The notes under the pieces: model-generated | Database searches by the model: none | What the model was told of the DNA's origin: nothing | The model's input: the letters and a program-made list of their open reading frames with translations, nothing else | Shown here: in pieces, positions 33,492 through 50,291 of the stretch | How positions within the stretch are numbered: position 1 is the stretch's first letter | How the letters are laid out: the number at the start of each line of letters is the position of its first letter | Made by a program: the position numbers and the translations under genes | From: an uncultured Actinomycetota bacterium | GTDB lineage: Bacteria; Actinomycetota; Thermoleophilia; Gaiellales; Gaiellaceae | Length of the DNA stretch: 64,000 nt | Assembly (NCBI GenBank): GCA_963723405.1 | Contig: CAVRQF010000007.1 | Coordinates: forward strand, 138,801-202,800 | Direction: 5' to 3'

Positions 33492-33870
33492 CCTGTCCTC
33501 GCTGAGCCGGCACCCCCACCGGCTCGCCCCGTCCTAGCGCGCGAGACTTTACACGACGATTTCGCAAAATGGGAGACTTCTTCACGCGCGGAATCGGCAC
33601 GACTCCTGGGCACGGAGGCGTCGGTCGTACTAGCGAGCGTTAAAGACTGACGGCGGCCAAATGGCCGCCGTCATAACCCCACCGCAGGAAATGATTGCCG
33701 TCAGTTCCCGGGTCAGGGAGTCTTGATGTGAGCCGCGCCGGCCCCGCCACATCGGGTCTGCGCGGACACGACCAATAATCGGCCCGAGCGCCCCACTTGA
33801 TCCATCCCCGTTTTGGTGGTTCACTGCCTCACTTGACTTCGCTTCATCCCTGATTGTCTAGTTTCCAGGG

Positions 33871-35673
33871 ATGGCCTCGAGGTTCGAGACGCGGTTGGCG
33901 GAGGGTCCTCCCATCGTGGCCGATGGAGGGATGGGGTCGCTCCTGACAGCTGCAGTGCCCCGGCTCCGGTCGCCGGAGGAAGCGAACCTGCGAGCTCCGC
34001 GCGCGGTCGTGTCGCTGCACGTGAGCTTCATCGAGGCCGGGGCAGAGCTGATCGAGACGAACACCTTCGGGGCGAACCGGCGAAAGCTCGCGTCCCACTA
34101 CCTCGAGGAGGACTTCGAGCGGATCAACTCCGCCGCGGTGAAGCTCGCGCGAGAGGCGCGCGAGCTGACCGGCCGCGACGTGTTCATCGGAGGGGCGATC
34201 GGGCCGCTCGGAGAGGCGGCGAGCTCGGAGCGCCGCCAGGAGCTCTTCGCGGAGCAGGCGGCGGTGCTCGAGGGCCGGGGCGCCGACCTGTTCATGCTCG
34301 AGACGTTCTTCGACCTCGAGGAGCTGGCAGACGCGATCGCCGCGGTCCGGGGTGTCTCGTCGCTCCCGATCGTCGCGCTGATGACCTTCGACGACGACGC
34401 CGAGACGCTCGCGGGGGTGACCGCCGAGCAGGCCGCCGAGCGGCTGGCCGGGCTCGGCGTCGCCGCGATCGGCGCGAACCACGGGGCCGGGCTCCTCGCC
34501 GCGCTCACAGCGCTCGAGCGGATGCAGGCGCCGGGACTGCCGCTCGCGACGCTTCCGAACATCGGCCTCGCGAGCCTCCTCGGCGGGAGGGTCGTGTACC
34601 CGCACGCAACGCCGGAGTACTTCGCGGAGTTCACGGCACATGCCCGCGAGCTCGGCGCCCGGGTGATCGGCGGCTGCTGCGGGACGACGCCGACCGAGAT
34701 CGCGGCGATCCGTGCCGCCGTGGAGGCTGCACGCCCGGCGCGGACGCGACTCGACGCCGACGCCCGTGAGGTGGCGGTCGCGCTCGGCGAGGAGCGCCGC
34801 GAGACGCGCCTTGCGACGGCGCTCCAGGAAGGTGAGTTCGTCGTCTCGGTGCAGCTCGACCCCCCGCTCGGCGGCTCGAGCCGCGGGCTGCTCGAGGTCG
34901 CCGCCGAGCTCGAGGCCTCGGGGCTCGTCCGGTTCGTGGACGTGAACGACAACGCCACGGCCCGCGCCGGGATCAACGCGCTGATGGTGTCGTCGCAGAT
35001 CGAGCGTGCGACCGGCCTCGAGACGATCCCGCATTTGACGACCCGCGACTCCAGCGTCCTCGGGATCGAGTCCCAGCTCCTGGGCGCGCACTCGGAAGGC
35101 GTGCGCAACGTCCTCGCCGTCACCGGCGATCCGCCCGAGGTGGGCGACTACCCGGGGTCGCAGGGGGTCTACGAGATCGACTCGGTGGGGCTCACGCGGC
35201 TGATCGCCGGCCTGAATCGGGGCGAGGACTTCAACGGCCGCCCGATCGACGCGCCGACGTCGTTCTTCGTCGGCGTGGCGGTGAACCACAACACCGACGA
35301 CGCCGACGAGGAGGCGGCGAGGCTGCAGGCGAAGATCGCCGCCGGCGCCCAGTTCGCGATGTCGCAGATCGCCTACGACCTCGACGCCCTCGTGAGCTTC
35401 GGCGAGACGGTGGCCGGGTTCGGGGTGCCGCTGCTCGTCGGGGTCTTCCCGCTCACGAGCTACCGGCTGGCGCTACGGCTCCACAACGAGGTGCCGGGGA
35501 TCGTGGTGCCGCAGGCACTCCAGGACGCGCTCGAGGCGGCCGGCCCGGACGCCGCCGCGATCGGCATGGCGCACGCCCGTGAGCTGATCGTCGCGGCGCG
35601 CGAGCTCTTCCAGGGGGTCTACGTGGTTGCGCCCTACCGCAAGCCCACGTCGGTGCTCGAGCTACTTGCGTAG
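33871..35673 (+). CDS. Bifunctional homocysteine S-methyltransferase / 5,10-methylenetetrahydrofolate reductase (YitJ-like)
   Basis: Intact 600-aa ORF. The N-terminal Hcy-binding domain reads ADGGMGSLL...ELIETNTFGANR...GCCGTTP. The C-terminal MTHFR domain reads FVVSVQLDPP...IPHLTTRDSS...NVLAVTGDPPEVGDYPG.... Confidence 0.85.
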   Translation: MASRFETRLAEGPPIVADGGMGSLLTAAVPRLRSPEEANLRAPRAVVSLHVSFIEAGAELIETNTFGANRRKLASHYLEEDFERINSAAVKLAREARELTGRDVFIGGAIGPLGEAASSERRQELFAEQAAVLEGRGADLFMLETFFDLEELADAIAAVRGVSSLPIVALMTFDDDAETLAGVTAEQAAERLAGLGVAAIGANHGAGLLAALTALERMQAPGLPLATLPNIGLASLLGGRVVYPHATPEYFAEFTAHARELGARVIGGCCGTTPTEIAAIRAAVEAARPARTRLDADAREVAVALGEERRETRLATALQEGEFVVSVQLDPPLGGSSRGLLEVAAELEASGLVRFVDVNDNATARAGINALMVSSQIERATGLETIPHLTTRDSSVLGIESQLLGAHSEGVRNVLAVTGDPPEVGDYPGSQGVYEIDSVGLTRLIAGLNRGEDFNGRPIDAPTSFFVGVAVNHNTDDADEEAARLQAKIAAGAQFAMSQIAYDLDALVSFGETVAGFGVPLLVGVFPLTSYRLALRLHNEVPGIVVPQALQDALEAAGPDAAAIGMAHARELIVAARELFQGVYVVAPYRKPTSVLELLA

Positions 35674-36662: not shown

Positions 36663-36736
36663 GGGGGCGTAGTTCAGCTGGTTAGAACGCCGGCCTGTCA
36701 CGCCGGAGGTCGCGGGTTCGAGTCCCGTCGCTCCCG
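36663..36736 (+). tRNA. tRNA-Asp (anticodon GTC)
   Basis: Manual cloverleaf of 74 nt, CCA not encoded. Acceptor GGGGGCG/CGCTCCC (one G-U). D arm GTTC-AGCTGGTTA-GAAC. Anticodon arm CCGGC-CTGTCAC-GCCGG. Variable AGGTC. T arm GCGGG-TTCGAGT-CCCGT. Discriminator G. Confidence 0.93.
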
Positions 36737-36738
36737 CT
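36711..36738 (+). repeat. attL-like direct repeat (3' end of tRNA-Asp)
   Basis: CGCGGGTTCGAGTCCCGTCGCTCCCGCT is identical to 46604-46631. Confidence 0.8.
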
Positions 36739-36742
36739 GCTG

Positions 36743-36774
36743 AAAGCCCCGTGAATACGGGGCTTTCGCGTTTT
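36743..36774 (+). terminator. Intrinsic terminator after tRNA-Asp
   Basis: AAAGCCCCG-TGAATA-CGGGGCTTT (9-bp stem) is followed by CGCGTTTT. Confidence 0.55.
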
Positions 36775-37010
36775 GTAGGGGTTTGCATCCGTTCCAGCTT
36801 GCTCGGAATGGAAACGAGTTTGGAAACGAAGCCTCTCGCTCGTCCCCCACGCCGCCCGACGCATCCTGATTCCCGACGAGCAATCGCGACTCCGCTTGGT
36901 TGTGTGTCGGTCCATGCCGCGACGATCGTGTCAGCCCGCGCAACACAAACCGCGTCATCGCGAAGGGGCTACTGCCGTCCTGGCGAATACCAGACGCGGT
37001 GCCCACCGCG

Positions 37011-37468
37011 GCCGCGATCATTGATGCCCTTGTGCAGTTTCGGAACGTGGTCCTCAAGGAGTACCGGGGACTGGGAAGACGTTTGCTGCTCGGGCCGCGA
37101 TCACGATGCACCCAAGCACGTCGTACGAGGACTTCGTCGAAGGGCTTCGATATGACGAGACCCTGAGTAGCTTCGTCCGCCGCGACGGGTTCATTTTGCG
37201 GATCGTCGGCGAGGCTGAGGCTGCTCCGGATGAAGACTTTCTGGTGCTCTTGGACGAGCTCGATCGCGCGAATGTCCCAAAGGTCCTGGGCGACCTCCTG
37301 CTCACCTTGCAAACATTCCCTCGGCGGGCCCCCGAAGCGGCCGTCCAGTCTGAGATCTCCACTCCCCTGCAACGGGCGGCGCCGAAATCCGACACTCGAG
37401 CTGCCCGGCGCGACGCCCCTACAACTCGGTCGGCGTCAAGTACTACTCCCGATCGGGTGAGGGCGTGA
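37011..37468 (+). pseudogene. McrB-family AAA+ GTPase (restriction-system subunit) remnant
   Basis: Across a frameshift it reads IIDALVQFRNVVL / QGVPGTGKTFAARAAITMHPSTSYEDFVEGLRYDETLSSFVRRDGFILRIVGEAEAAPDEDFLVLLDELDRANVPKVLGDLLLTLQ. This matches the E. coli McrB blocks QGPPGCGKTF, FHQSYSYEDFIQGYRP, DGIF and IIDEINRANLSKVFGE. Downstream, the frame degenerates and the C-terminal half is absent. Confidence 0.65.
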
Positions 37469-37568
37469 GGAAACAAGCTGTCGGAAGAGACCCAGACTGC
37501 GACACGCCTCCAAGCGACTGTAGTGATGACGCCTCTTCGACCGTCCCTCGATGGCTTCGGGTGATGAG

Positions 37569-37690
37569 TTAGGGCGACATGCTCTCAGCCATTTTCAGAT
37601 GCATCTTCAAGATCGGCAACGCCGCGGTCGCCGCGCTCTTGAGCGCGGTCGCTGCCCGTGCTGGTCCGACTCGCCGTCGAGGGTCGGTTT
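37569..37690 (-). pseudogene. DUF4142 C-terminal fragment (inverted copy of the 3' end of gene 44670..45170)
   Basis: Encodes ...ALKSAATAALPILKMHLKMAESMSP*, versus ...ALKSAATAALPILKMHLNMAESMST* at 45170. About 105 nt align at roughly 85-90% identity in inverted orientation (by eye). Confidence 0.65.
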
Positions 37691-37695
37691 CCGGC

Positions 37696-37969
37696 TTAGT
37701 AGAGGCGATGGTTGCTCGCACGTCTCGCCCATTCGACGAGCCACGCGACGGTCTCTTCGGCTTCCGCCGGTTGGCGACACCAGGCACGGAAACTCGCGCC
37801 CGAGCAGTGGAACTCGTGGGCGAGTGGCCGAGGAGATGATCTCCATGCGCATCGAGTAACGCTCAGTCAGGCTTCCAAGGTGGCGCAACGACGCCGCGTT
37901 AGAAGGCACGACGAACTCAACGTCAACAACCTGCCTTCCTGTCATAGCTGACGTATTGGGCTGGAACAT
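37696..37969 (-). CDS. Small conserved ORF, paralog of 49965..50273, frameshifted (function unknown)
   Basis: Reads MFQPNTSAMTGRQVVDVEFVVPSNAASLRHLGSLTERYSMRMEIISS, then after a frameshift AEETVAWLVEWARRASNHRLY* (TAA 37696-37698). The paralog reads RVVEVEFGGASAAALLRHLGSLTERHAMRMEILS...AELTVAALVEWVRRASS. Confidence 0.45.
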
Positions 37970-37979
37970 CACGCCTAAT

Positions 37980-38004
37980 ATTCCCGGCAATTCGTGAAAT
38001 TAAC
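37980..38004 (-). promoter_or_regulatory. Candidate sigmaB/sigmaF-type promoter (GTTA-N15-GGGAAT), possibly leaderless
   Basis: The minus strand reads GTTAatttcacgaattgccGGGAAT. GTG/ATG of ORF 37696..37969 begins 7-10 nt after the -10 element. Confidence 0.3.
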
Positions 38005-38113
38005 AATGCTTTCAGAACAGGACTCAAGTCGCGCTGAAAATCGGCGCGAAGCCGGGTCGACAGTCGCCCCCCTTGCGCAAAACGCACAGTTCGCCGAAGA
38101 GTCTGATGCCTGA

Positions 38114-38148
38114 GTGGCCGCGCACGTTCCAATCGCGCACGCGGCCAC
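38114..38148 (-). terminator. Hairpin downstream of the PRC-barrel gene
   Basis: GTGGCCGCG...CGCGGCCAC forms a 9-bp stem about 30 nt after the stop at 38180. There is no U-tract. Confidence 0.35.
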
Positions 38149-38179
38149 GTCTTCAGCCGGAAGGTGGTCCCAGCGTGCC

Positions 38180-38539
38180 TTACCAGTCCTGCCAGCCGGC
38201 GCCGCCGCGGTCGTAGTACGCCCCAAGCTGGCCTCGATAGACGTCGTCGCGATAGTTGTCAGCATCGAACTCCGGCGAGTTCTTGATCTGCTCCTTGGTG
38301 CGGTTGACGTACACCTTCTCATCTTCCCCGTCAACGCGGCTGATCACGCCCGCCGGAAGCATTACCTTCTTACCGAAAATCCACGGCCCGGTGTCGACGA
38401 CGATATACGCGGAGCCCACGTCGTTGCTGGTCTCGTCGATTTTCCCAATCGACCCATCCAGTGCTTCGACCCCATAGCCCGTAAGGTCGAGAGAATCGAG
38501 CGATTGCTCGCGATACGTCCAGATCTCTATCGCACTCAT
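38180..38539 (-). CDS. PRC-barrel domain-containing protein
   Basis: Intact ORF with GGGAGGA 5 nt upstream: MSAIEIWTYREQSLDSLDLTGYGVEALDGSIGKIDETSNDVGSAYIVVDTGPWIFGKKVMLPAGVISRVDGEDEKVYVNRTKEQIKNSPEFD.... Confidence 0.8.
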   Translation of the reverse strand: MSAIEIWTYREQSLDSLDLTGYGVEALDGSIGKIDETSNDVGSAYIVVDTGPWIFGKKVMLPAGVISRVDGEDEKVYVNRTKEQIKNSPEFDADNYRDDVYRGQLGAYYDRGGAGWQDW

Positions 38540-38580
38540 AGCGTCCTCCCTGATGCATTTGCTCGTTGATCGCGACGGTG

Positions 38581-38606
38581 GTACCCGCGTTCAGTCCGCA
38601 CAAACC
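38581..38606 (-). promoter_or_regulatory. Candidate sigmaB/sigmaF-type promoter (GGTTT-N15-GGGTAC) for the PRC-barrel gene
   Basis: The minus strand reads GGTTTgtgcggactgaacgcGGGTAC. The -10 element ends about 40 nt upstream of ATG 38539. Confidence 0.45.
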
Positions 38607-38714
38607 AACCGACGGCTTGAACTGATTGCGGTGACCGGTCACGCTCTTAGGCGCCTGCGGCAACTGCACGCAGCTCCGCGATCACCGGCTCCATTAGAGG
38701 CCCACAACGTAAGG

Positions 38715-38810
38715 CTAGGTGCGGCGCACGAAGTAAACAATCAACAACACGAGCAGGATGATCACCAAGATCCCGATCAGCCCATAACCAGTGCCGGCCA
38801 TCGCAAGCAA
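38715..38810 (-). CDS. 31-aa hydrophobic small membrane peptide
   Basis: A perfect AGGAGG (38818-38823) lies 7 nt upstream of TTG 38810. The peptide is (M)LAMAGTGYGLIGILVIILLVLLIVYFVRRT*, a single TM helix with a basic C-terminus. It is too short for the ORF track, apart from a longer spurious 95-aa extension. Confidence 0.45.
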   Translation of the reverse strand: MLAMAGTGYGLIGILVIILLVLLIVYFVRRT

Positions 38811-38846
38811 CGTATTACCTCCTAGTTGACGTAACCCTGAGTAGTG

Positions 38847-38871
38847 ATGCCCGTCACCGCGATGCGCAAAC
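38847..38871 (-). promoter_or_regulatory. Candidate sigmaB/sigmaF-type promoter (GTTT-N15-GGGCAT) for the small peptide gene
   Basis: The minus strand reads GTTTgcgcatcgcggtgacGGGCAT. The -10 element ends about 24 nt upstream of the SD. Confidence 0.4.
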
Positions 38872-39234
38872 AGACACATCGGAATAACTGCTACTTCTTG
38901 GCACGGGTTCGCGGGCCGCCTGGTGTGACTAGAGCTCGATACGCGCGAACCCGCCTCCATTGGACGCCGCGACCTGCCCAGACTTTCGCCTTCGTCACAC
39001 ACTCCAGCTGTTCCCGACTTGCGGCCGGACGGTGTTTACAGTGCTTGCACATGTCGCCGTGCTCACTCAGCTCACTCGTTACAACCTGTCAGACAACGAG
39101 GAGCGCGAGCGGCTCATACGACAGGTAGGGCGTAGTCGCGCCCGGCCTCGACATTTGAACGTAATCCGCTTACTGCGCGGCATGACCTTCGCTCGCGGAT
39201 GCCAGGTTCGCGCTCGACGTCGGCCTCGAATCCG

Positions 39235-39480
39235 TTACAAACTCAAGGGCCTTGTCGGGCTGACCGTCGCTCCGCCGTTCCCGGGCCTGATCCTATCTCT
39301 CGGTGTCGGGCGGCAGTTCCGACGGCGGCTCGCCGGGTCAGGGACCGGATACGGGGTGCCCGGGTCAGGGGAGGGGTAAGGCGTTCCCGGATCGGGTGGT
39401 CTCGGTGGGGTCGGCTCCGGGTCAGCCGGGCCTGGGAGTGGGGGCGTAATCAAACACAGCGAGCGTGTCACGACGACCAT
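39235..39480 (-). CDS. Hypothetical Pro-rich protein with PDPGTPYP repeats (doubtful)
   Basis: Part of ORF 39235..39555: MVVVTRSLCLITPPLPGPADPEPTPPRPPDPGTPYPSPDPGTPYPVPDP.... The underlying DNA is an imperfect ~26-nt tandem repeat (39331-39420). I see no RBS and no homology. Confidence 0.2.
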   Translation of the reverse strand: MVVVTRSLCLITPPLPGPADPEPTPPRPPDPGTPYPSPDPGTPYPVPDPASRRRNCRPTPRDRIRPGNGGATVSPTRPLSL

Positions 39481-40201
39481 GTCCAGGGAATGCCCAAACG
39501 GAAGTCTCCAGAAACACCCCGTAGGATCTCCGGCTCCGCCATGTGGAGGTGGCAATCCTCCGTTTGCGAACTCGAGGGCATGTGCTCGTTACACGCCGTC
39601 CGTCGTATGCCGCGACGCGGTCATGCCGATCCTCACCGGCTCTGGAAGTCGGCGTGCAGCTCGGGCACACAGTAAGCGGCGCGCGACGTCACCTCAGGCG
39701 CTTCGCCCCGGCGCTGCAGCCTGCGGCCCATCTGCAGCCCGGTCGGGCTGTAGATGCGGGATGGTCGGGTCGGAGGACAGGTTGAGGTGCGCAGCGACCT
39801 TCGGCGCGCAGTCAGCGAACAACCGCTGGATGCCGTGCCCAACTAGGCGGCGGCGCTGACCCGGCAGAGATTCCGACAAGTCCGATCCAGGTATTTCTCG
39901 CCGCGTTCTTCCCTCGCCGTGCGTGACTCGGCAGGCACCTCGCACAAGTTCTGTGGGGGTCTCGAGCTGGCTGGAGTGCCGCAGCTGGCCCAGGTTGAGT
40001 GGATCGAGCCGGAGCCGCCTGAGGGTGTGAGGCGGTCGAGGTCGAGGTACGTCGCGATGACGAGATCGCGAAGATGGTCTCTCTTTGACGTTGAGCGTTG
40101 GCGCCATCATCACGTCGACGGCGGGCTTTCCCGCGCGGCCGTCAGGCATCAGAATCCTGACCTGCCTCGGCGTCGCGAGCGCACCGAGCAGGGGGCTTCG
40201 G

Positions 40202-40570
40202 TTAGAGGGGGGCTCTCATTCGGATTGTCGTGCCGTGCGGTTCGCTGGTTATTTCGACGTGGGGCATGAGGACGCTGATCATCATGAGGCCGCGTCCACG
40301 CTCGTCGTTGTCGAAGCGTGCGTGCTTCCAGGTGCCGGTATCGGTGACCGCGACCGTGAGGCTGTCTTGCTCGATCGCTGCGCGGACTTCGACCGTCACG
40401 CAAGGCTCGGCGTGTTCGATCGCGTTCGCGGCGGCTTCATGGGTGGCGAGAATGACTGAGCTTCTCAGCTCGTCGGAAAGCTCGGTCTGGTCCAGCCATG
40501 TGCCGAGGTCACGGCGAAGCTCACCGAGCCGGCTGAGTTCGCAGGGGAGGGATGCCACGAAGACCTCCAC
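40202..40570 (-). CDS. RsbW/SpoIIAB-like anti-sigma-factor-type Ser kinase (HATPase_c_2), cassette A
   Basis: From GTG 40570: VEVFVASLPCELSRLGELRRDLGTWLDQTELSDELRSSVILATHEAAANAIEHAEPCVTVEVRAAIEQDSLTVAVTDTGTWKHARFDNDERGRGLMMISVLMPHVEITSEPHGTTIRMRAPL. The N-box is EAAANAIEHA and the G2-like box is GRGL. It is 94/122 identical to 49593..49961 by my count. Confidence 0.8.
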   Translation of the reverse strand: MEVFVASLPCELSRLGELRRDLGTWLDQTELSDELRSSVILATHEAAANAIEHAEPCVTVEVRAAIEQDSLTVAVTDTGTWKHARFDNDERGRGLMMISVLMPHVEITSEPHGTTIRMRAPL

Positions 40571-40609
40571 TTGCGGGTTAATTCCGCGAGGCGTCGAAAC
40601 CAAACACGG

Positions 40610-40945
40610 TCACGCCAACGCCTGCTCACGGTCTGGGACGCAGTCGAGATGCTCTAGGAGACCGCTGATTTCAAGAGCCGTGCGAACGATCATGGCGGTG
40701 CCGAGCTGTAGACGCAGCCGCGACCCTCGGCTCCGGGCGAGCCGGTCAGCCAGCGCAAGGTTGTGAAGGAACGAGGAGTCGATGAACTGCGCGTCCGTTA
40801 CGTCGATGACGACGAGATCGTTCGTCTCGACCAGCGAGGTGAAGAGCTCTCGAACGTCAGTCTTGGTCGCGACGTCGTGCTCACCATGCACCTCGACAAC
40901 GGCGGCTCCGACCCTGGGCCGGAGCACATGGAGATCGGGGATCAT
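40610..40945 (-). CDS. STAS domain anti-sigma-factor antagonist (RsbV/SpoIIAA-like), cassette A
   Basis: AAGGAG precedes ATG 40945: MIPDLHVLRPRVGAAVVEVHGEHDVATKTDVRELFTSLVETNDLVVIDVTDAQFIDSSFLHNLALADRLARSRGSRLRLQLGTAMIVRTALEISGLLEHL. The phosphorylatable-Ser context is FIDSS. Confidence 0.8.
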   Translation of the reverse strand: MIPDLHVLRPRVGAAVVEVHGEHDVATKTDVRELFTSLVETNDLVVIDVTDAQFIDSSFLHNLALADRLARSRGSRLRLQLGTAMIVRTALEISGLLEHLDCVPDREQALA

Positions 40946-41061
40946 CTGAGTTCTCCTTCGAACATGAGGACATCGGGACAGTTCGTCTTCAAGCCGGAAG
41001 TTCTCTCGGTTCCTGTTGATCCGTTTCGGTTGGAGGGCGAGCCTCGTGGTTGCTCGCCAGC

Positions 41062-41412
41062 TCACGTTGGGCCTCGACCGCCGAGGGTCGAGTCGTCTCC
41101 GAGTTCGGTCACGCCGAAGAGCCCGAGGAGCGCCCCGACGTCCTGCCCCTCTTGGGCGGGGTGCCGCATCGCGATCGAGGGGTTCACCCGGTAGCGGTTG
41201 CGACGGCCGACTCGAACACGCTCCAGATATCCGGACTCGACCAGGTCGGTGACGATCCGATGCGCTGCTCGCTCCGTGATCCCGACCTTCAACGCGATCT
41301 CGCGCAGGCGGACGTTGGGGTCTCGGGAGATGCAGAGGAGTACCTGCGTGTGGTTCGACAAGAAGTGCCACGACTTGTTCTCGCCATCTGACATACCGGA
41401 CTTTTTTAGCAT
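41062..41412 (-). CDS. Winged-helix (MarR/ArsR-like HTH) DNA-binding protein, cassette A
   Basis: From Met16 of ORF 41062..41457: MLKKSGMSDGENKSWHFLSNHTQVLLCISRDPNVRLREIALKVGITERAAHRIVTDLVESGYLERVRVGRRNRYRVNPSIAMRHPAQEGQDVGALLGL. Confidence 0.75.
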   Translation of the reverse strand: MLKKSGMSDGENKSWHFLSNHTQVLLCISRDPNVRLREIALKVGITERAAHRIVTDLVESGYLERVRVGRRNRYRVNPSIAMRHPAQEGQDVGALLGLFGVTELGDDSTLGGRGPT

Positions 41413-41445
41413 AACTTTCTTAGCATGTCTAGTCTGTCCGCAGAA
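41392..41445 (-). promoter_or_regulatory. Conserved upstream/5' region shared by both cassettes (candidate promoter-operator with ATGCTAA direct repeat)
   Basis: Minus strand here: TTCTGCGGACAGACTAGACATGCTAAGAAAGTTATGCTAAAAAAGTCCGGTATG. At 48792-48845: TTCTGTGGACAACTTAGACAGGCTAAAGAAGTTATGCTAAAAATGTCCGGTATG. Confidence 0.35.
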
Positions 41446-41478
41446 GCATCTCGGCAATCACGCACCAAGCTCCAAGGC

Positions 41479-41510
41479 GCGGGGCGTGGCGCCTGGTCGC
41501 CACGCCCCGC
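41479..41510. other. Perfect 13-bp GC hairpin upstream of cassette A
   Basis: GCGGGGCGTGGCG-CCTGGT-CGCCACGCCCCGC. There is no U-tract on either strand. Confidence 0.3.
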
Positions 41511-41775
41511 CACACCCGAGGACGACACGAGCAGGCGATCGCGATCTACCGCTATCCGGCCGCAGCCGAGCCAGGGACACGACCCGGCGACGATGCGCTG
41601 CATCGGCTCGAGCAGATCTTCTAACGTCAAAGCGCCGGCAGACCCAGGCCTGAAGACACTCTTCACCGAGCGCATCCCGACCCATGCCGACCACCTGACC
41701 CGAACCGCTCACTCTGACCTGTTCCTCGGCCCGGCACAAGGCGCTCTTTCGGCCCTGTCCTTCGGGTTCGAGCGT

Positions 41776-42096
41776 TTAGGGCTTCCGCAAGTACCTCCCG
41801 CGTACCCTGAACCAGTCCGTTGCCCCGAGCCACGCGACGGCTGCAGTCCAAGCGTCCTCCGAATAGCCGTTCGCGTTCAGCCGCGCGCTGAACACGGACC
41901 TCAAAGCCATCGGCATGTCCGGGTACGCGGTCTTCAGGCGCGCTTCCATCAGAAGCATTCGATCCAGAACGTCTTGAGGGCCACCCGCCTCGACGTGCGT
42001 ACGCATCTCGACCTCTTCCAGCGCGAGCCGTAACCAGAGCGCAGGACCGTCCCCGCGGGGCTCCTCCTCCTCCTCCTTCGCGTTGCGGCGCCGCAT
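41776..42096 (-). CDS. Hypothetical protein (island cargo, unknown function)
   Basis: ORF reads ...MRTHVEAGGPQDVLDRMLLMEARLKTAYPDMPMALRSVFSARLNANGYSEDAWTAAVAWLGATDWFRVRGRYLRKP. The composition is protein-like, but I recognise no family. Confidence 0.3.
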   Translation of the reverse strand: MRRRNAKEEEEEPRGDGPALWLRLALEEVEMRTHVEAGGPQDVLDRMLLMEARLKTAYPDMPMALRSVFSARLNANGYSEDAWTAAVAWLGATDWFRVRGRYLRKP

Positions 42097-42536
42097 CAGT
42101 GCCTCGCGGCATACCCACGTTCCCGCACGCCGAACCCATTGCTCGGATCGTTGAACCTAACGGCATACACTCTGGCTGCCCTGCCTCTGTCCGCCTCCAA
42201 GCGGGTGCGTCCATGGCATTAGCTGTAGGACCTGAACACGGTGGCTGCGAGACGAGATTGGGCCACGGCTTCACTATCGCCATTTGTCGTCGCGCAGTAA
42301 GAGCAGCGCTCCACCCCGGAGCTCGTAGCCTTCCCCTCCTTACGCGCACGGCGGAAAGCCTCCCGGCGCCGCTCAACTTTCCCGGCCTCCCGCTTCGTGT
42401 ACCCGTTTGGGCTCGTCTGTTTGCACCGACCTCGCGGCACGGACGAGCGCCGCACGTCAACCGCTGCGCGCCCTCGAGCACGACGCCGCACTCCGACGAG
42501 GCCTTCGCCTCGACCGGGTTCCAGCGTGAAAGGACA

Positions 42537-42680
42537 TTACGTCTCGTCGTCGACCTTCCAATTCGCCGGACTGCACGCCTCGCAGAACCGGCGGGGACGG
42601 CCACGCCCAGGACGCCGCTCGAAACTTACGCCGCACGACTCGCACGCCCGGGGGGCGGGTCCAACGGGCGACGAGATTCA
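42537..42680 (-). pseudogene. Zinc-ribbon (CxxC...FCxxC) protein fragment typical of actinobacterial mobile elements
   Basis: The minus frame reads PVGPAPRACESCGVSFERRPGRGRPRRFCEACSPANWKVDDET* (TAA 42537-42539) with no usable start codon. A second CG..TCG..PC fragment lies just downstream in another frame. Confidence 0.3.
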
Positions 42681-43232
42681 CGCGCCATTCCCGTTGCGAG
42701 TGGAAATGTTACGCCCCGAGTTCTGGAGCCAGGTCGGAGAGATGCTGACGAGCCCGCGAGATTCGAACTCAACGTCAACGACGTGTGTCGCTGTTAAGAC
42801 CGACGTCTCAACCTCGGACATACGCTCTGTGTTTCCCGATATAAGGCGCGGCATTAACCAAACAGCCTGTACTCGAGCCTCGTATTTTGGGATGCATCGG
42901 AATCAAAGGACCGGGTCGCCATCGGTGATCGCTCAGCTCGTGATCGCAGACGAGGCCAACGTTCGATCGCTTCAGCGTCGCGAGCTGAACGCCGGCTTCG
43001 CCCACGTCCGGCTCCACGCGGACGCGCGCGTGAGCGTCGAAATCGACGACCAAGCCCGGCTCCTGCGCCTCGCACAACAGAGGTGAGGTGACCTAGGGAT
43101 GTGCTCAACTTCTCCGACCGGGGCCGGGACGGGTTCCGCTCGGAGCGCGCAGCTGCGGCTCTGAATGACCGGGCCGCAGTCGACGACGCCTCGATGCCGT
43201 GTTGCGGGCGCTACGGACGCGGCACCGTGGCG

Positions 43233-43901
43233 CTATCGGGACGGCCCCTGGCCGAGCGGGGTGTGGTCGAGTTCCCGGGTGAGTTCCGGCAGCGAGTCGT
43301 AGACTGCGACGGCGCCGGCGTCGAGGAGCTCCTGGCTCGACCAGCCGCCGGTGAGGACGCAGATCGTCTCGAGGCCCGCGCCGGCTGCGGCCTCGATGTC
43401 CCAGCGGGAGTCGCCAACCATGACGGCGTGCGCCGGCTGCTCCGCCTTCGCGAGAGCGGCGTGGACGATGTCGGGATGCGGCTTCGAGCGTTCTACATCG
43501 TCGGAGGTCGTCCAGTCGTCGATCAGGTCCCGGACGCCGAGGACCGTGAGGAAATGGTCGAGATCGTTCCGGCCCGCAGAGGATGCGAGGATCGTTGCGA
43601 TGCCGCGGCGGCGCAGCTCTCCGACAAGCCCCGCGGCGCCGTGGAGAGGCTCGCACTCGTCGCGGATCGTCCCGAATTCGCTCTCCTTCTGTTCGCGAAG
43701 CCGGTCTCCGAGGCTGCGCTCGACATCGTCGTCTGTCAGGGCCTTGACGATCTGGTCGCCACCCATGCCGATGTGGCGGTGTATGCGCCAAACCGGCAGG
43801 ACGATGCCCTGCCCACGGAACGCCCGGTACCAGGCGAGCGCGTGATGGTAGTTCGTGTCGACAAGCGTGCCGTCGAGATCGAGCAGCGCGGCGGTAGGCA
43901 T
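43233..43901 (-). CDS. HAD family hydrolase (beta-phosphoglucomutase/phosphatase-like)
   Basis: From Met92 of ORF 43233..44174: MPTAALLDLDGTLVDTNYHHALAWYRAFRGQGIVLPVWRIHRHIGMGGDQ...ILASSAGRNDLDHFL...DVERSKPHPDIVHAALAKA...VMVGDSRWDIEAAAGAGLETICVLTGG. Confidence 0.8.
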   Translation of the reverse strand: MPTAALLDLDGTLVDTNYHHALAWYRAFRGQGIVLPVWRIHRHIGMGGDQIVKALTDDDVERSLGDRLREQKESEFGTIRDECEPLHGAAGLVGELRRRGIATILASSAGRNDLDHFLTVLGVRDLIDDWTTSDDVERSKPHPDIVHAALAKAEQPAHAVMVGDSRWDIEAAAGAGLETICVLTGGWSSQELLDAGAVAVYDSLPELTRELDHTPLGQGPSR

Positions 43902-43910
43902 CTTCGCCTC

Positions 43911-43937
43911 GTACCAACCGACGGGGTGTATGAAACC
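43911..43937 (-). promoter_or_regulatory. Weaker sigmaB/sigmaF-type promoter candidate (GGTTT-N16-TGGTAC) before the HAD gene
   Basis: The minus strand reads GGTTTcatacaccccgtcggtTGGTAC, 9 nt before ATG 43901. Confidence 0.25.
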
Positions 43938-44615
43938 GAGCCGCCCGATAATGCATGGAAGAAATGAAGCGGCCAGGAGGTCGCAGGGCCGCTGCTCGCG
44001 CCGCGTCAGCAGCCTCGCCCCATCCGTGATCCCGGCGCTTGCGGCGCTTTCATGAAGGGTTAGGCGTGGCCGTCGGAGGCCGCACCATCCGCTAGCTTCG
44101 CGGGAGAGCACGGTCGATCGTGTTCGGAAGCTGTAGCCGCGGCCAAGGGTGGACGCGCCGGAGGCGGCGCCCATTCGAGAAAGCGGTACTTCGAGCGAGA
44201 TCTCGTCGGCGGGCGCGTCGCGGTGCGTGACGGAGCAGAGTCGTCGAAGCTTCCTTCGCTCCGTCCTTCGCCTTCTCTGCGTTCTTGGCCTTCGCAGCCG
44301 CGCGGCTCGCGCTCGTCGTGAGCGTGCCCGACAGGTCCTCGGACTCCTTAGGCAGGAGTCGGAGTCGACGAACTCGCTCGAAACATTGCCGTCCCATTCG
44401 CGACGCTGCGTCCGAGGGGGAGCGGCACACCACTGAGTAGCGTTTATCCCCGAAACGGCTGGCAGGCCGCCCGAGGGCGCCGACCTAGAAGGCTATGAGC
44501 ACCTCACCAGCAGTCACGTAGGGTGCTGCGACGTTCAGGTCTGGGAGGTTCTCGGCGAGCCACGCGGCGGCGACCCGATTCGACTCGTGCCCGCCTGGTC
44601 CTCGCACTCGCCGAT

Positions 44616-44640
44616 GTGTATCGCAGCCCGGCGGGGGTAG
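44616..44640 (+). promoter_or_regulatory. Candidate sigmaB/sigmaF-type promoter (GTGT-N15-GGGTAG) for the DUF4142 gene
   Basis: GTGTatcgcagcccggcggGGGTAG lies about 30 nt upstream of ATG 44670, with the GAGGAGGGG SD in between. Confidence 0.3.
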
Positions 44641-44669
44641 AGCAGGGGAAACACGACCGAGGAGGGGAG

Positions 44670-45170
44670 ATGCATAAGCGCGCCCTACTGCTCACACTCG
44701 TTCTTGCGTCAGGGTTTGTCACGATGGCGGCAGCTGCGCCCGGACCCACGAACCAGGACCGAACGTTCGTAATGACCGCGGGCCACGCCGGCGCTGCCGA
44801 AATCGCCGCGGCGAAGCTGGCGCTGACGAAAACGAACAACTCGTCGACGGTCGCGTTTGCGCGGCGAATGATCCGCGACCACACGATGCTGGCGGCGAAG
44901 TTGACCTCGACAGCCCGGGCCGTCGGACTGATGCCCCCGACCACGCCGAGCCCGGCACAGACAGCCTCGATCGAGGCGCTCCGCAAGCTCAGCGGGACGG
45001 CGTTCCTGCAGAAGTACCGCCTGAGCCAGATCTCCGCTCACAAGGACGCGGTCGCGCTCTTCACGGCCGAGTCCGAGCGCGGGCAGACACCAGCTCTCAA
45101 GAGCGCGGCGACCGCGGCCCTGCCGATCTTGAAGATGCATCTGAACATGGCCGAGAGCATGTCGACCTGA
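44670..45170 (+). CDS. DUF4142 domain-containing secreted protein
   Basis: From the internal ATG of ORF 44523..45170: MHKRALLLTLVLASGFVTMAAAAPGPTNQDRTFVMTAGHAGAAEIAAAKLALTKTNNSSTVAFARRMIRDHTMLAAKLTSTARAVGLMPP...FLQKYRLSQISAHKDAVALFTAES.... Confidence 0.8.
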   Translation: MHKRALLLTLVLASGFVTMAAAAPGPTNQDRTFVMTAGHAGAAEIAAAKLALTKTNNSSTVAFARRMIRDHTMLAAKLTSTARAVGLMPPTTPSPAQTASIEALRKLSGTAFLQKYRLSQISAHKDAVALFTAESERGQTPALKSAATAALPILKMHLNMAESMST

Positions 45171-45174
45171 CTCG

Positions 45175-45335
45175 CCCCATCAGGCCGCGTCCACGCTCGA
45201 CGTTGTCGAAGCTTGCGTGTTTCCAGGTGCCGGTGTCCAGTTTGTCCAGGAACTCGATCTGATCTAGACACTCGGCGAGCTCGAGGCGAAGCGCGCGAGA
45301 CGAGATCGACCTCGTCCGGGGTCCTCATCGGATCG
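45175..45335 (-). pseudogene. Third, internally deleted copy of the RsbW-like kinase gene
   Basis: The minus strand reads ...LELAECLDQIEFLDKL-DTGTWKHASFDNVERGRGLMG. It matches the kinase N-terminal segment (L..WLDQ...DKL) and the DTGTWK..FDN.ERGRGLM block, but lacks the ~45 aa between them. Positions 45181-45240 align with 40280-40335 of cassette A. Confidence 0.5.
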
Positions 45336-45815
45336 TCGAGGAGATCGACCCGACGAGCGTTTTGCCATGAGCCGAAGGAGAACGATGATGGGGACATCGC
45401 GGTTGGGCGAGGGAATTGCAGCCTCGGGAAGGATCGGTGCCTGCGGAGCGGGCGCATCACAGGACTTACTGAAATCGTTGTCTTGTCCGCCTACAACCCG
45501 AGGGGGTCTGGATGGGGCAGGATCTCCGGTGAACCACATGGAAGAGGGGGCACGCCCTAGACCAGTAGTTCGGCTAGATCCCTGCTATGAGTGGCGTCTC
45601 GGCACGGTCCGAGTGTTGCGCTCTTCGTTCGGCCGACAGTCTCGTCGGATGCGCGAGCGGCCCCGTACGGCTGGCCGTTGACTTCGCCCCGCGTCGACCT
45701 TCAGGCGTTCGTTCTGGACCATTCGTCTGTCGGGACGAGCGGAACTGAACCGAACAGCGCGGCGCCCGAAGCTCGGGCGCCGCGCTCGTCGAGAGGCTTC
45801 GTTCGCTAGCCGGGT

Positions 45816-46346
45816 CTAGGCGTCGCTGCCGTCGTCGGTGCCGACGACGTGGATGTCGACGTACATACCGCCCGACTCGTGGCCCGTCGTCTGGCAGAGG
45901 AGTCGATACCAACCGTGCTTCAGGAGGACCTTCGTTGTCGAATCGACCTCCGTGCTCGTGCCACACGGTGCGGCAGGGTTAGCCGCCGCGGGATCGTTAC
46001 AGATCGGCGTGAGTTCCTGAGCGGCCGACCCCACGGGCCCACACGCCGAGTCTGACCTCGGGCAGCTTCTGAGCGCGATGTTGTGCATGCCGCTCGTGTC
46101 GGCCGCCGACAGCCAGTAGGTGCCCGGGTTGATCGTCAAAACCTGGTGCACAGCCCCGTGCCCCAACGCATCGGAGTCACCGAACTTGACGTCGATGCAA
46201 CCGAAGACGCCCGCCCCGCAACTGAACGATGCATTCAGGGTCCGACCCTGCGCCGACGACTTCCCCGCCATCAGCGCGAACGCGATTGCCACCGCTGCCA
46301 CGACGAGGAGCGGGAGTGCCACACGATAGTTGGATGCTTTCTTCAC
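45816..46346 (-). CDS. Secreted cupredoxin-like (type-1 copper, plastocyanin-like ligand pattern) protein
   Basis: Intact ORF with signal peptide MKKASNYRVALPLLVVAAVAIAFALMAGKSSAQG. Candidate ligands are GMHNIAL (His) and LLCQTTGHESGGMYV (Cys-x4-His-x4-Met) near the C-terminus. Confidence 0.55.
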   Translation of the reverse strand: MKKASNYRVALPLLVVAAVAIAFALMAGKSSAQGRTLNASFSCGAGVFGCIDVKFGDSDALGHGAVHQVLTINPGTYWLSAADTSGMHNIALRSCPRSDSACGPVGSAAQELTPICNDPAAANPAAPCGTSTEVDSTTKVLLKHGWYRLLCQTTGHESGGMYVDIHVVGTDDGSDA

Positions 46347-46603
46347 TGACGTTCCCCTTTACCCAGTTGTCTTGTCCGAACGAGCAGGAATGCGTTCAGG
46401 TCCCCCCGTTGGCGCACCTATTGCGACCCGGCCGCAGAAACTCACCGTCTCACAGGATCAGGGCGAAGTCAACTTGCAAGATCGGACGGGCGGATTCGAA
46501 CCGAGCCTTCTGCTCCCAAAGCCAATCGGGGCCGTGGCACGAACTCCGCAGACCGAAATGGCTTGTCTACACAGCGCTCGGCCGCTCTCGGCACCCCAGT
46601 ACA

Positions 46604-46631
46604 CGCGGGTTCGAGTCCCGTCGCTCCCGCT
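46604..46631 (+). repeat. attR-like direct repeat (displaced tRNA-Asp 3' end)
   Basis: CGCGGGTTCGAGTCCCGTCGCTCCCGCT is identical to 36711-36738. It is followed by a hairpin (46643-46672) that could be the original tRNA terminator. Confidence 0.75.
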
Positions 46632-46860
46632 CTCGAAAACCCCGCATCCCGCCTAGCTTGCGGCCGGATGCGCGTCGTCCAACCGGCGAAGCCCGTGCCG
46701 CACACGTCGTCTCGGGTCGGTGACTCGCGTCGACGCGCAAGGATGCGAGCGTGTCCGGGACGGTCCGTCGACGCCGCGACTCGCGCCGCGGAGCTCGTCG
46801 ACGGGCGCCGGCCGAGCAGCACGAAGTGAAGCCGTGCTGGGCTCGACCTAGACTCACGCC

Positions 46861-47028
46861 GTGCCGTACCACGCGCAGAAGACCGGGCAGGTCAGGCCGG
46901 GACTCAAGATCCATGAGCTGAAGGCCGACAACCGTGCGGTCTGCGGCAACTCGCGCCGGCAACCGATGGACGACCTCGGGCCCGGAACGGTGACGTGCGA
47001 ATCCTGCGCGCGGGACACCGGCCACTGA
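46861..47028 (+). CDS. Hypothetical 55-aa Cys-containing small protein (doubtful)
   Basis: GTG 46861: (M)PYHAQKTGQVRPGLKIHELKADNRAVCGNSRRQPMDDLGPGTVTCESCARDTGH*. It is below the track length cut-off, and I see no homology. Confidence 0.2.
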   Translation: MPYHAQKTGQVRPGLKIHELKADNRAVCGNSRRQPMDDLGPGTVTCESCARDTGH

Positions 47029-47062
47029 TCCGCATCAACCGAGCGATATTCGGGAGGCCTGA

Positions 47063-48223
47063 GTGGCCAGATTGCGGGCGATCGAGGCGCCATGGCGCAC
47101 TATCGTTCGGCGAGTGGATCCCAACGGTGCTCTGACTGAGCTTGCGTTGTCGCTTGTTGAGACGGAGTCGGTGAATCCGGGGCTCGCGGCCGACGGGTCG
47201 GGAGAGGGCGAAGCGGCCGAGGTCGTTGCGGAATGGTCTCGGGCGGCGGGGCTGCAGGTCGAGCTCGATTATGTTCTGCCCGGCCGGCCGAACGTGGTGG
47301 TAACTGCGCCTGGCACGGGAAGCGGCCGGACCCTGTTGCTGAACGGGCACCTCGACACGGTGGGCGTCACCGGGATGGAGTACCCGTTCGCTGCGGATGT
47401 GCGCGACGGGCGGCTTTACGGGCGTGGCGCCTACGACATGAAGGGTGCGCTGGCCGCCGCGCTCGTCGCCGCAGCCCAGTTGCGACACGAGAAGCTCGCG
47501 GGCGACGTCGTGGTGGCGTGCGTCATCGATGAAGAGCTTGGCTCCGCCGGGACCGAGCGGCTGGTGACATCGCGAACCGCCGACGCGGCGATCGTCTGCG
47601 AGCCGACCGATGAGCGTGTCTGCATCGCGCACAAGGGATTCGTGGGCTTCGAGGTCGAGACACGTGGCCGTGCCGCTCACGGTTCGCGGCCGGATCTCGG
47701 TGTTGACGCGATCGCGGCGATGGGACCGGTGCTGATCCGGCTCCAACAGTTGGCCGACTCGCTCGAACAGGAGGCCGGGTCACCCGCTCCTCGGTGCCGG
47801 CTCGATCCACGCCTCACTGATCGAGGGCGGCCAAGAGTATTCGAGTTACCCGGAGCGATGCCTGTTGACCGGTGAGCGACGCACCGTGCCGGGGGAGTCG
47901 ACGGCCGACATCGAGGAGGAGTTGCGTGGCCTGGTCGGCCAAACCGATGCGAACGTCCGGATCACGTTTGCCCGCCACCCATTCGAGATCGACGCTGCGG
48001 CAGATTGCCGCGACAGGTCGCGCGATGTGCCGGAGATGACCGTTTCCATGGGATCGCGTTCTGGACGGACGCCGCGCTCGTAGCCGAAGCGGGTATTCCT
48101 ACCGTCCTCTATGGGCCGCGCGGGTCTGGAGCACACGCGAGCGAGGAATGGGTTGAGCTCGCAAGTCTGGAACGATGCGCCCGCGTCTACCTTGAAACCG
48201 CTCGCGCACTCTGCGCCGCATAG
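47063..48223 (+). CDS. M20 family metallopeptidase (ArgE/DapE/acetylornithine deacetylase-like), frameshifted
   Basis: ORF 47063..47875 reads ...LVETESVNPG...LLLNGHLDTVGVTGMEYPFAADVRDGRLYGRGAYDMKGALAAALVAA...VVVACVIDEELGSAGT...IVCEPTDERVCIAHKGFVGFEVETRGRAAHGSRPDLGVDAI. It continues in two other frames (SIHASLIEGGQEYSSYPERCLLTGERRTVPGES, then FWTDAALVAEAGIPTVLYGPRGSGAHASEEWVELASL). Confidence 0.75.
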
Positions 48224-48313
48224 ATCACCGCGGTTCATCGACGGCGCAGGGGTTCTCGTTCGGCCCACGTCCTCCCAGCCTCACCGAGCGGCGCGGCTAG
48301 CGTTCGCTGAACG

Positions 48314-48742
48314 ATGCGCGAGCTCGAGACAACCGAACTGAGAGCGTTTCTGCTCGCGGGCACGCGGACTGCGAAGGTCGCGGTTGTGCGTCGAGACGGG
48401 TCACCCCTGGTGACGCCGGTCTGGTTCCTCCCCGACGAGGACGGGTCGATCGTGTTCGAGACGGGTCGGAGCTCCGTGAAAGGCCGCGCGCTCTCACGCG
48501 ATCCGCGGGTGTCGATCTGCGTCGAGGATGACGAGCCCCCGTTCGGGTTCGTTCGCGTCGACGGGATCGCAGAGCTCTCCGATGACCACGACGAGCTGCT
48601 GTCGTGGACGATCAGGATCGCGGCGCGCTACATGGGCGAGGATCTTGCGGAGGAGTTCGGTCGCCGGAACGCAGCTCCGAGCGAGATGCTCGTGCGGGTG
48701 CGACCCCATCGCATCATCGCGCAGGTCGAGTTGGCCGACTGA
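48314..48742 (+). CDS. PPOX-class (pyridoxamine 5'-phosphate oxidase fold) probable F420-dependent enzyme
   Basis: Intact ORF: MRELETTELRAFLLAGTRTAKVAVVRRDGSPLVTPVWFLPDEDGSIVFETGRSSVKGRALSRDPRVSICVEDDEPPFGFVRVDGIAEL.... Confidence 0.8.
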   Translation: MRELETTELRAFLLAGTRTAKVAVVRRDGSPLVTPVWFLPDEDGSIVFETGRSSVKGRALSRDPRVSICVEDDEPPFGFVRVDGIAELSDDHDELLSWTIRIAARYMGEDLAEEFGRRNAAPSEMLVRVRPHRIIAQVELAD

Positions 48743-48824
48743 CACCTCGCCGAGAGCGCCACGTTCACCGATTCTCGGGTACTCGAGGTGGTTCTGTGGA
48801 CAACTTAGACAGGCTAAAGAAGTT

Positions 48825-49163: not shown

Positions 49164-49218
49164 CGGCAAGGCCGCCTACACGATGCCTTCATGTCCTCGT
49201 GTACGAAGGAGAACCCAG

Positions 49219-49554: not shown

Positions 49555-49592
49555 CCGGCTTCAGATCCCGCGCCCCGGGGAACTAGGGCGGA

Positions 49593-49961: not shown

Positions 49962-49964
49962 TCG

Positions 49965-50273: not shown

Positions 50274-50291
50274 GCGCCGGTAGGAGCTGCG

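Follow-up and report, generated by a model that had tools for sequence, protein, structure and literature searches.

The window analysed here is a stretch of 64,000 nt from an uncultured actinobacterium of the family Gaiellaceae (contig CAVRQF010000007.1, positions 138,801 to 202,800). It carries an intact tRNA-Asp(GTC) gene, the 3' end of which recurs as a displaced fragment some 9.9 kb downstream. The segment between the two copies (36738-46631) is interpreted, with a probability of roughly 70 %, as the decayed and non-autonomous remains of at least one integrative element that targeted this tRNA gene, forming one layer of a composite region. This interpretation is based on the exact direct repeat, on the behaviour of the same site as a hotspot in relatives, on the absence of a recombinase between the repeats, and on a composite base composition and a paralogy that both run past the distal repeat copy.

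The tRNA-Asp gene and its displaced 3' end

The 28-mer CGCGGGTTCGAGTCCCGTCGCTCCCGCT is present in two exact copies in the window, in direct orientation and identical at 28 of 28 positions (Table 1). A preliminary description of the window had reported this repeat correctly in sequence and orientation, although its share of the tRNA gene is the last 27 nt plus one further nucleotide rather than 26 plus two. No third copy was found in the window with up to three mismatches, and none of 100 shuffled controls reached two copies. A permissive blastn-short search of the entire 64 kb with the whole tRNA as query revealed no further degenerate fragment, including to the right of 46631, and upstream of the fragment at 46604 there was no residual similarity to the 5' part of the tRNA. 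In tRNA numbering the fragment begins at position 49, where the T-stem starts; this is a recognised crossover sublocation in the classification of islands in tRNA genes (tDNA islands) (PMC4383910). The sublocations known for such islands include the anticodon loop and the T-loop / T-acceptor junction (PMC4383910). As in these islands, the bounds of the segment are an intact tRNA gene and a cognate 3' fragment in the same orientation.

The repeat had also been regarded as an attachment site (att) scar of integration at the tRNA-Asp 3' end, and this view was strengthened: there are two copies only, and the corresponding site in relatives behaves as an att site. Since synteny in the relatives stops at the tRNA, direct tRNA fragments lie downstream of it and recombinases are found at the site, as described below, the 28-mer is best read as an att scar of the T-stem crossover class, and the 3' part of the intact tRNA-Asp is the regenerated attL copy. 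The possibility that the 28-mer is what is left of an eroded 44-nt att was considered and rejected, as 0 changes in 28 nt beside 7 changes in the adjoining 14 nt would mean non-uniform decay.

The same site in related genomes

Related loci, referred to by L numbers, were collected with the fused homocysteine-methyltransferase/MTHFR gene 1 kb upstream of the tRNA as an anchor; species-representative genomes gave 80 of them and metagenomes another 80. Those genome records that are named belong to Gaiellaceae, Gaiellales, Thermoleophilia or unclassified Actinomycetota, and the metagenome contigs carry no taxonomy. Identity of the anchor protein was 82 % in the best representatives and 92 % in a short metagenome contig, L081. 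A full tRNA was present in 103 of the 160 loci, and the 67 of these with at least 1 kb of downstream sequence were taken as informative. Sequences downstream of the tRNA were compared with tblastx and read at ≥70 bits per high-scoring segment pair, in view of the compositional noise of high-GC DNA.

The order sigma-70, MTHFR, tRNA-Asp is conserved upstream in relatives, none of which repeats the arrangement of the window past the tRNA, and the tRNA-Asp of the window is 94.6-100 % identical in the loci which have the tRNA. Collinear homology between the congeners L031, L032 and L043 (approximately 89-90 % nucleotide identity) extends to the final base of the tRNA, where it is lost, and because it halts there the tRNA-Asp 3' end is a sharp synteny breakpoint. 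In L004 and L005 the homology ends approximately 90 nt past the tRNA, after a common arm. The site is hypervariable in relatives, and the right flank of the window was found beside tRNA-Asp in none of the available genomes or contigs.

Units bounded by tRNA fragments were present in 18 of the 67 informative loci. There were 25 such units of 0.66-9.9 kb, with up to four in a row (L056), and every one of the 25 fragments lies past the tRNA in direct orientation; no inverted one was found in the 458 kb of downstream sequence searched. The fragments fall into two classes, one of 41-46 nt from the anticodon stem/loop and one of 25-28 nt from the T-stem, to which the repeat of the window belongs. 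The T-stem start recurs independently in L014, L031 (twice), L032 (twice), L051 and L126, and the short-class attR copies of L031, L032 and L051 have a conserved inner flank, GATCGCGGGGGTAAAG. L056 and L038 form a filled/empty pair, with 6.9 kb in four units in the former and the tRNA followed directly by the common flank in the latter. Two full tRNA-Asp genes within 11 kb were found in L028.

Phage_integrase domains were detected at the site in L026, L055, L042 and L004 with Pfam and in L070 and L013 with a local hidden Markov model (HMM). These tyrosine integrases adjoin the tRNA or attR; the one of L013 is truncated and that of L004 is a C-terminal half. Picking genes by third-codon-position GC (GC3) missed integrases of the relatives, and gene lists made in this way are unreliable for mobile genes. 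The integrase open reading frames (ORFs) L026:12882-14090 (-), L070:4948-6381 (-) and L013:12448-13188 (-) stop inside the tRNA of the opposite strand, in the D-loop region; att/tRNA sequence thus encodes their last approximately 25 codons, so that the C-terminus would change upon integration or excision. Large serine recombinases with Resolvase, Recombinase and Zn_ribbon_recom domains also adjoin tRNA-Asp (L006:13575-15158 (-), L046:15378-17258 (+) and L011:14185-14640 (-)), and the ORF of L006 abuts the tRNA 3' end and reads into it. Targeting of tDNA is known for tyrosine recombinases only (PMC4383910), and a serine integrase at the tRNA-Asp site would be unusual; no repeat or att was defined for L006, L046 or L011.

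In 23 of the 25 units no integrase was found with a lineage-specific tyrosine-integrase HMM and loose recombinase-motif screens, Pfam having been applied to the largest ORFs only, so that other recombinase families are possible. Units of the relatives (L014, L031, L032, L051, L056, L077, L126, L155) mostly consist of one or two cargo genes with no detected recombinase. Their cargo includes a BTAD-SBP regulator, a LuxR-STAND ATPase, a cyclase-NB-ARC-TPR protein, MscL and an epimerase. The PRC gene of the window had been considered as a link to the integrase-bearing island of L026, and this link was down-weighted, as the gene has approximately 8000 close family members and is not element-specific.

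Terminators and the conserved left-end arm

The terminator that follows the intact tRNA had been suggested to be borne by the island, and the comparison with relatives agrees with this. Approximately 105 nt past the intact tRNA are near-identical in the window, L004 and L005, followed by total divergence; the block consists of a strong terminator with a U-run and then TTGCATCCGTTCCAGCTTGCTCGGAATGGAAACGAGTTTGGAAACG. Because this block, that is the terminator and the next ~70 nt, recurs after tRNA-Asp in the islands of L004 and L005, which are otherwise unrelated to that of the window, the terminator is element-borne, and the whole of 36741-36842 is the left end of an element. At its attR end the L004 element bears a truncated integrase. 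No Rfam family accounted for the conserved post-tRNA motif. The arm contains two direct copies of the 8-mer TGGAAACG, at 36809-36816 and 36821-36828, which is the sole occurrence of this pair in the window, and the paired 8-mers may be arm-type binding sites.

A second element family has a parallel layout in L016 and L078, with a terminator, a spacer and two copies of TTGGAGCA. At L016:13060-13180 a terminator and a variant of the arm of the window come after a fragment that resembles the 3' end of another tRNA (GGTCGGGGGTTCGAGCCCCTCACCGCCCACTA), which suggests that related elements of differing tRNA specificity may have the arm in common. L005 and L016 were rejected as a filled/empty pair, since their common sequence is a 32-nt terminator only.

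Absence of recombinase and transfer genes

Genes in the window were predicted by choosing frames by GC3, followed by Pfam, and additionally by a full six-frame Pfam search in which stops were replaced by X. At E ≤0.1 and on both strands, the six-frame search detected no Phage_integrase, Resolvase, Recombinase, transposase or Xis domain between the repeats, and no domain for conjugation, type IV secretion, FtsK-like Tra, mobilisation or replication. The lineage-specific integrase HMM, run unfiltered (--max, E ≤100), and tblastn with seven local recombinases gave random matches only. As a positive control, Pfam found the integrases of relatives, including a fragment of 204 amino acids at 3e-14. 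These searches bear out the earlier impression that the element is devoid of a recombinase. The unit is unable to move alone; its two att cores are intact, and a cognate integrase acting in trans could in principle excise it.

Composition and the region to the right of attR

The GC content is 0.709 upstream of 36.6 kb, 0.639 between the repeats, 0.655 in 46632-50300 and 0.690 in 50.3-57.5 kb. In a profile of strand-symmetric tetranucleotide distance, expressed as z against the core, values of 3-6 set in sharply at tRNA-Asp, remain at 3-5 for approximately 3.7 kb past attR and return to baseline at about 50-51 kb. The drop in composition noted in the preliminary description is therefore present in the sliding GC and k-mer profiles, but there is no return to baseline at attR. 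AT-rich patches inside the island had been said to be unmatched in the flanks; a patch at 37.9 kb does exist (0.45), but the lowest GC of any 100-nt stretch in the window, 0.41, lies in the flank at 7.85 kb. Two core stretches, 10000-12000 and 32000-34000, also have a GC of 0.65-0.67 and a tetranucleotide z of 2.5-2.7, the second spanning the region of the sigma-70 gene.

Several features connect the two sides of attR. A trio of genes encoding a winged-helix-turn-helix (wHTH) regulator, a STAS protein and a HATPase_c_2 protein is present as copy A between the repeats and as an inverted copy B beyond them (Table 1), and smaller fragments connect 37.8 with 50.0 kb and 45.2 with 49.8 kb across attR. 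The 55-amino-acid Zn-ribbon gene just outside attR has its counterpart in L078 beside arm-like repeats, just inside attR, and the similarity is confined to the ORF; the anchor genes of the window and L078 are only 64 % identical at the amino acid level. This gene is horizontally mobile. In L162 and L163 the PRC gene, a small peptide gene and a DUF1345 gene lie within 3 kb, together with STAS and HATPase_c_2 genes; in the window attR separates the DUF1345 gene (50292-51023) from the PRC gene. The PPOX gene has homologues at 91-94 % amino acid identity in unrelated neighbourhoods. An inversion between the trio copies was rejected as the origin of the layout, as it would flip attR relative to the tRNA.

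The preliminary description had proposed a single discrete island of 9.9 kb ending at the 28-mer, which is not supported, given that composition, the trio paralogue and the mobile Zn-ribbon gene continue past attR. Because of the atypical composition, the trio paralogy, the Zn-ribbon gene, the PRC-DUF1345 neighbours and the contexts of PPOX, the 28-mer at 46604 is probably an internal junction of an accreted, decayed composite and not the edge of foreign DNA, and 46632-50300 is probably an older or accreted layer. A hairpin after attR (46643-46672) had been put forward as the original tRNA terminator; it is weak (z -2.3) and has no U-run, and does not qualify well for that role.

The M20 peptidase gene to the right of attR lies outside the repeat-bounded unit. 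Nucleotide 47772 is missing in the strain of soil run X2, and its deletion restores approximately 100 codons of the M20 gene while the second break stays; at least one M20 break is therefore polymorphic or an assembly indel, and frameshift-based 'pseudogenes' of this assembly should be treated with caution.

Reads and contigs

The strain is present in soil run X2 at approximately 3x, where the island, the core flank and the region past attR have equal depth. No Logan contig at 97 % identity joins 36.7 kb to 46.6 kb, and apparent joints in contigs at 90 % identity were spurious, with sides of 20-22 nt. At ≥90 % identity, recruitment to the island in four runs was far below that to the core, as accessory DNA would show. 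No reads from an excised or circular junction were found in run X2, in which the depth of approximately 3x is too low to exclude rare excision.

Proposed origin and alternative explanations

The preferred reading of the segment as a decayed remnant would imply that one or more elements inserted into the 3' end of a Gaiellaceae tRNA-Asp by site-specific recombination of the tyrosine-recombinase type, with the crossover in the T-stem/acceptor part of the tRNA. The attP site would have provided the replacement 3' end of the tRNA, its own terminator and the conserved arm (36741-36842), and the original 3' end would have been displaced to become the 28-mer at 46604. The genes for integration, excision and transfer would then have been deleted, as the anatomy suggests, leaving the PRC gene, the wHTH-STAS-HATPase_c_2 partner-switching module, the HAD hydrolase, the DUF4142 gene, the gene of the 176-amino-acid protein and fragments. 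Later insertions at the same tRNA may have pushed older elements rightwards, while deletions and rearrangements eroded the region from 36.7 to approximately 50.3 kb or further. Within this scheme we infer the mode of recombination, the succession of events and an arm function of the 8-mers.

A number of observations weigh against this reading. Neither an empty site, nor an alternative occupant, nor a circular junction of this island was found in the available genomes and reads, and in run X2 the depth of the island equals that of its flank and no contig skips the island, so that we infer insertion by analogy. The contig of L081 (92 % amino acid identity at the anchor) stops precisely at the final bases of tRNA-Asp, where the assembly probably broke at a repeated or strain-variable att sequence. 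No integrase was present in any of the five short-class loci examined (L014, L031, L032, L051, L126), and no cognate recombinase was found for this att class. The other elements with the arm use att cores of 41-46 nt and the repeat of the window is 28 nt, and a chimeric history is therefore needed as an extra assumption. A distal att for the proposed second layer was not found in the permissive search of the 64 kb, and the composite model therefore stands on composition and paralogy. Finally, the low GC could partly stem from the large non-coding share of the segment and not from foreign origin.

That the segment is after all a single discrete island, with native chromosome to the right of 46631 and the hairpin at 46643-46672 as the original terminator, is considered unlikely. 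The exact direct repeat does bound the segment, GC is lowest inside it (0.639, compared with 0.655 past attR) and a hairpin is present after attR, but the k-mer z of 3-5 over the next 3.7 kb, the paralogous trio and fragments on both sides, and the horizontally moved first ORF, also found in the island of L078, all argue for accessory DNA beyond the repeat; moreover the hairpin is the weak one without a U-run, no relative has the right flank beside tRNA-Asp, and the closest PPOX homologues (91-94 %) lie in unrelated contexts. The 28-mer might instead be what remains of a second, tandem tRNA-Asp after loss of the 5' part, or have arisen by chance in a local rearrangement. The two genes in L028 show that duplicates occur in the family, and the region is heavily rearranged; this explanation is nevertheless highly improbable, given that the T-stem start recurs independently in five other loci, that all 25 fragments of the relatives are direct and downstream, that integrases abut the same tRNA in relatives, that the post-tRNA sequence is an element end common to other islands, and that nothing resembling a tRNA 5' part precedes the fragment.

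The remaining alternatives concern mobility. The unit could be non-autonomous yet mobile, in the manner of a cis-mobilisable element (CIME) or hitcher, its attL and attR being recombined by an integrase from elsewhere or from an incoming element. The cores are identical over 28 nt while internal paralogues are 77-95 % identical, 23 of the 25 units in relatives also have no detected integrase, and accretion-based mobilisation of CIMEs is known from Streptococcus and Streptomyces (PMC5704250). Against this, no excised or circular form was seen in reads at a depth of ~3x, an integrase for the short att class was detected in none of the loci, 28 nt may stay identical by chance at modest divergence, and turnover in the relatives is visible only at ~10 % nucleotide divergence, with no sign of recent movement; such mobility is accordingly very doubtful. 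A broader version would make the downstream side of Gaiellaceae tRNA-Asp an integron-like accretion platform on which units of 0.7-10 kb with no detected integrase, each bounded by a tRNA 3'-end fragment, would be inserted, excised and shuffled in trans by integrases from elsewhere or from transient neighbours, the unit of the window being a large and still mobilisable member. It fits the lack of a detected integrase in 23 of the 25 units, the conservation across species of the arm families with paired TGGAAACG, paired TTGGAGCA and GATCGCGGGGGTAAAG, the perfect cores of the window and the four-unit array of L056; evidence of recent movement was not found, nor was an integrase cognate to the short att class, and we regard this version as unlikely.

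Genes and remnants

The features of the region are collected in Table 1. Intact-looking genes make up approximately 36 % of the repeat-bounded segment. The decay of loci seen earlier was confirmed in the McrB-like remnant (a weak match), the copy of the DUF4142 tail, the 60-nt HATPase_c_2 fragment and the low share of intact coding sequence. The McrB-like remnant shows a Walker A motif, GVPGTGKT, and a Walker B motif, LLDELDRAN. The PRC-barrel-like protein has approximately 8000 homologues, with a top identity of 87 %, and belongs to a widespread stress-associated family; homologues in Streptomyces plasmids are annotated 'PRC-barrel domain-containing protein'. The DUF4142 product is predicted to be secreted or a lipoprotein, and the 176-amino-acid protein has an apparent signal peptide, judged by eye on the translation.

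Table 1 Features of the tRNA-Asp region (positions in the window)
Feature	Position	Strand	Evidence
tRNA-Asp(GTC), intact, integration target	36663-36737	+	ARAGORN; Rfam tRNA 71.5 bits
attL core, tRNA positions 49-75 (T-stem to 3' end) plus 1 nt	36711-36738	+	Exact 28-mer
Intrinsic terminator, strong, hairpin and U-run	36741-36775	+	-22.4 kcal/mol, z -5.0
Element left end (putative P' arm) with two direct TGGAAACG 8-mers	36776-36842	+	Common to L004, L005
AAA_5 / McrB-like NTPase remnant, truncated	37058-37312	+	Six-frame Pfam AAA_5, weak, E 0.04, profile 6-91/139
DUF4142 gene, copy of 3'-end fragment	37566-37646	-	Inverted repeat I5, 91 % to 45093-45173
Fragment matching 50034-50132 (beyond attR), inverted	37832-37930	.	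Inverted repeat I4, 77 %
PRC-barrel-like protein, 119 amino acids, cargo	38180-38539	-	Pfam PRC, E 0.0019
Small hydrophobic peptide gene, ~28-31 amino acids	38715-38804	-	81-82 % nucleotide identity to 31-amino-acid gene beside PRC in L161-L163
HATPase_c_2 anti-sigma-factor-type serine kinase (RsbW/SpoIIAB-like), copy A, intact	40202-40603	-	Pfam, 4e-23
STAS anti-anti-sigma (RsbV/SpoIIAA-like), copy A, intact	40610-40975	-	Six-frame Pfam STAS, 2.6e-6
Winged-helix (MarR/IclR-like) regulator, copy A, intact	41062-41457	-	Pfam HTH_24, 4e-7
HAD-family hydrolase, cargo	43233-43901	-	Pfam Hydrolase, 2e-28
DUF4142 protein, cargo	44523-45170	+	Pfam DUF4142, 5e-37
Third HATPase_c_2 gene, 60-nt remnant	45178-45237	-	92 % to 40283-40342, 95 % to 49821-49880 (D5/I6)
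176-amino-acid protein, N-terminal hydrophobic stretch	45816-46346	-	GC3 0.81; no Pfam match
attR-type core, displaced tRNA-Asp 3' fragment	46604-46631	+	Exact 28-mer
Additional compositionally atypical segment, without distal att	46632-50300	.	Tetranucleotide z 3-5, GC 0.655
Zn-ribbon ORF, 55 amino acids, just outside attR	46861-47028	+	~88 % nucleotide / 92 % amino acid identity to L078 18883-19002, ORF only
M20 peptidase gene, at least two frame breaks, outside repeat-bounded unit	47063-48270	+	Pfam
PPOX gene, first intact gene of right flank	48314-48742
wHTH-STAS-HATPase_c_2 trio, copy B, intact, inverted	48784-49968	+	I1-I3, 81-82 % to 40195-41453; Pfam

The segment had no match among 50,697 phage records and no phage-type Pfam domain in six frames, and plasmid matches were limited to the PRC gene; the repeat-bounded unit is neither a phage nor a plasmid. 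No exact-protein record was found for the sigma-70, MTHFR, PPOX and STAS proteins. Elsewhere in the window, at 59135-60000, there are three diverged tandem copies of 360 nt (67-76 % identity) within a long ORF at 58.9-60.6 kb, suggesting that this ORF may encode a protein with repeats of ~120 amino acids.

Relation to known systems and significance

Actinomycete integrative and conjugative elements (AICEs) such as pSAM2 and SLP1 have actinobacterial hosts, integrate into tRNA 3' ends and are flanked by direct att repeats of tens of nucleotides. In contrast to AICEs, and to integrative and conjugative elements (ICEs) in general, which combine an integrase, a conjugative module and replication genes, the segment showed no int, xis, rep or FtsK-like tra gene, or remnant of one, in the six-frame Pfam search. 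The tDNA islands were reportedly treated by Williams in 2002, a work cited in the Islander paper. Like the islands of Islander (PMC4383910; Hudson, Lau & Williams 2015), the segment in the window has an intact tRNA and a directly oriented, displaced 3' fragment as its ends, and in both cases sequence supplied by the island regenerates the tRNA. It differs in that a tyrosine integrase inside the interval is obligatory in Islander and absent here, and in that the right edge of the foreign DNA probably does not coincide with the fragment.

The tandem accumulation and decay at an att site seen in CIMEs (PMC5704250; Pavlovic et al. 2004, Bellanger et al. 2011) also marks the site of the segment, and such accretion and decay is documented for composites of ICEs, integrative and mobilisable elements (IMEs) and CIMEs (PMC5704250). 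As in CIMEs, attL and attR are both kept while integration/excision and transfer genes are absent. The definition of CIMEs comes from Firmicutes, where they derive from identified ICEs or IMEs, whereas for the segment no parent element was found and no remnant of a conjugation module is recognisable. The tycheposon islands of Prochlorococcus (bioRxiv 10.1101/2020.12.28.424599) resemble the window in being tRNA-adjacent, with older elements pushed inward and with partial tRNAs and degenerate remnants. They belong to another phylum, however, their hallmark genes are absent here, and the recombinases of the relatives are ordinary Phage_integrase and large serine enzymes. The unit in the window is a CIME-like remnant, a new instance of a kind already known.

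The island of the window itself is ordinary. The att classes, arm motifs and tyrosine and serine recombinases of its relatives are leads for recombination tools for high-GC actinobacteria. For annotation and binning the site is a hazard, as contigs break at tRNA-Asp and DNA well past the att scar may be accessory. In the Gaiellaceae, an abundant and almost uncultured soil family, the tRNA-Asp 3' end is a place at which mobile DNA accrues and decays, bringing with it stress-signalling and regulatory genes.

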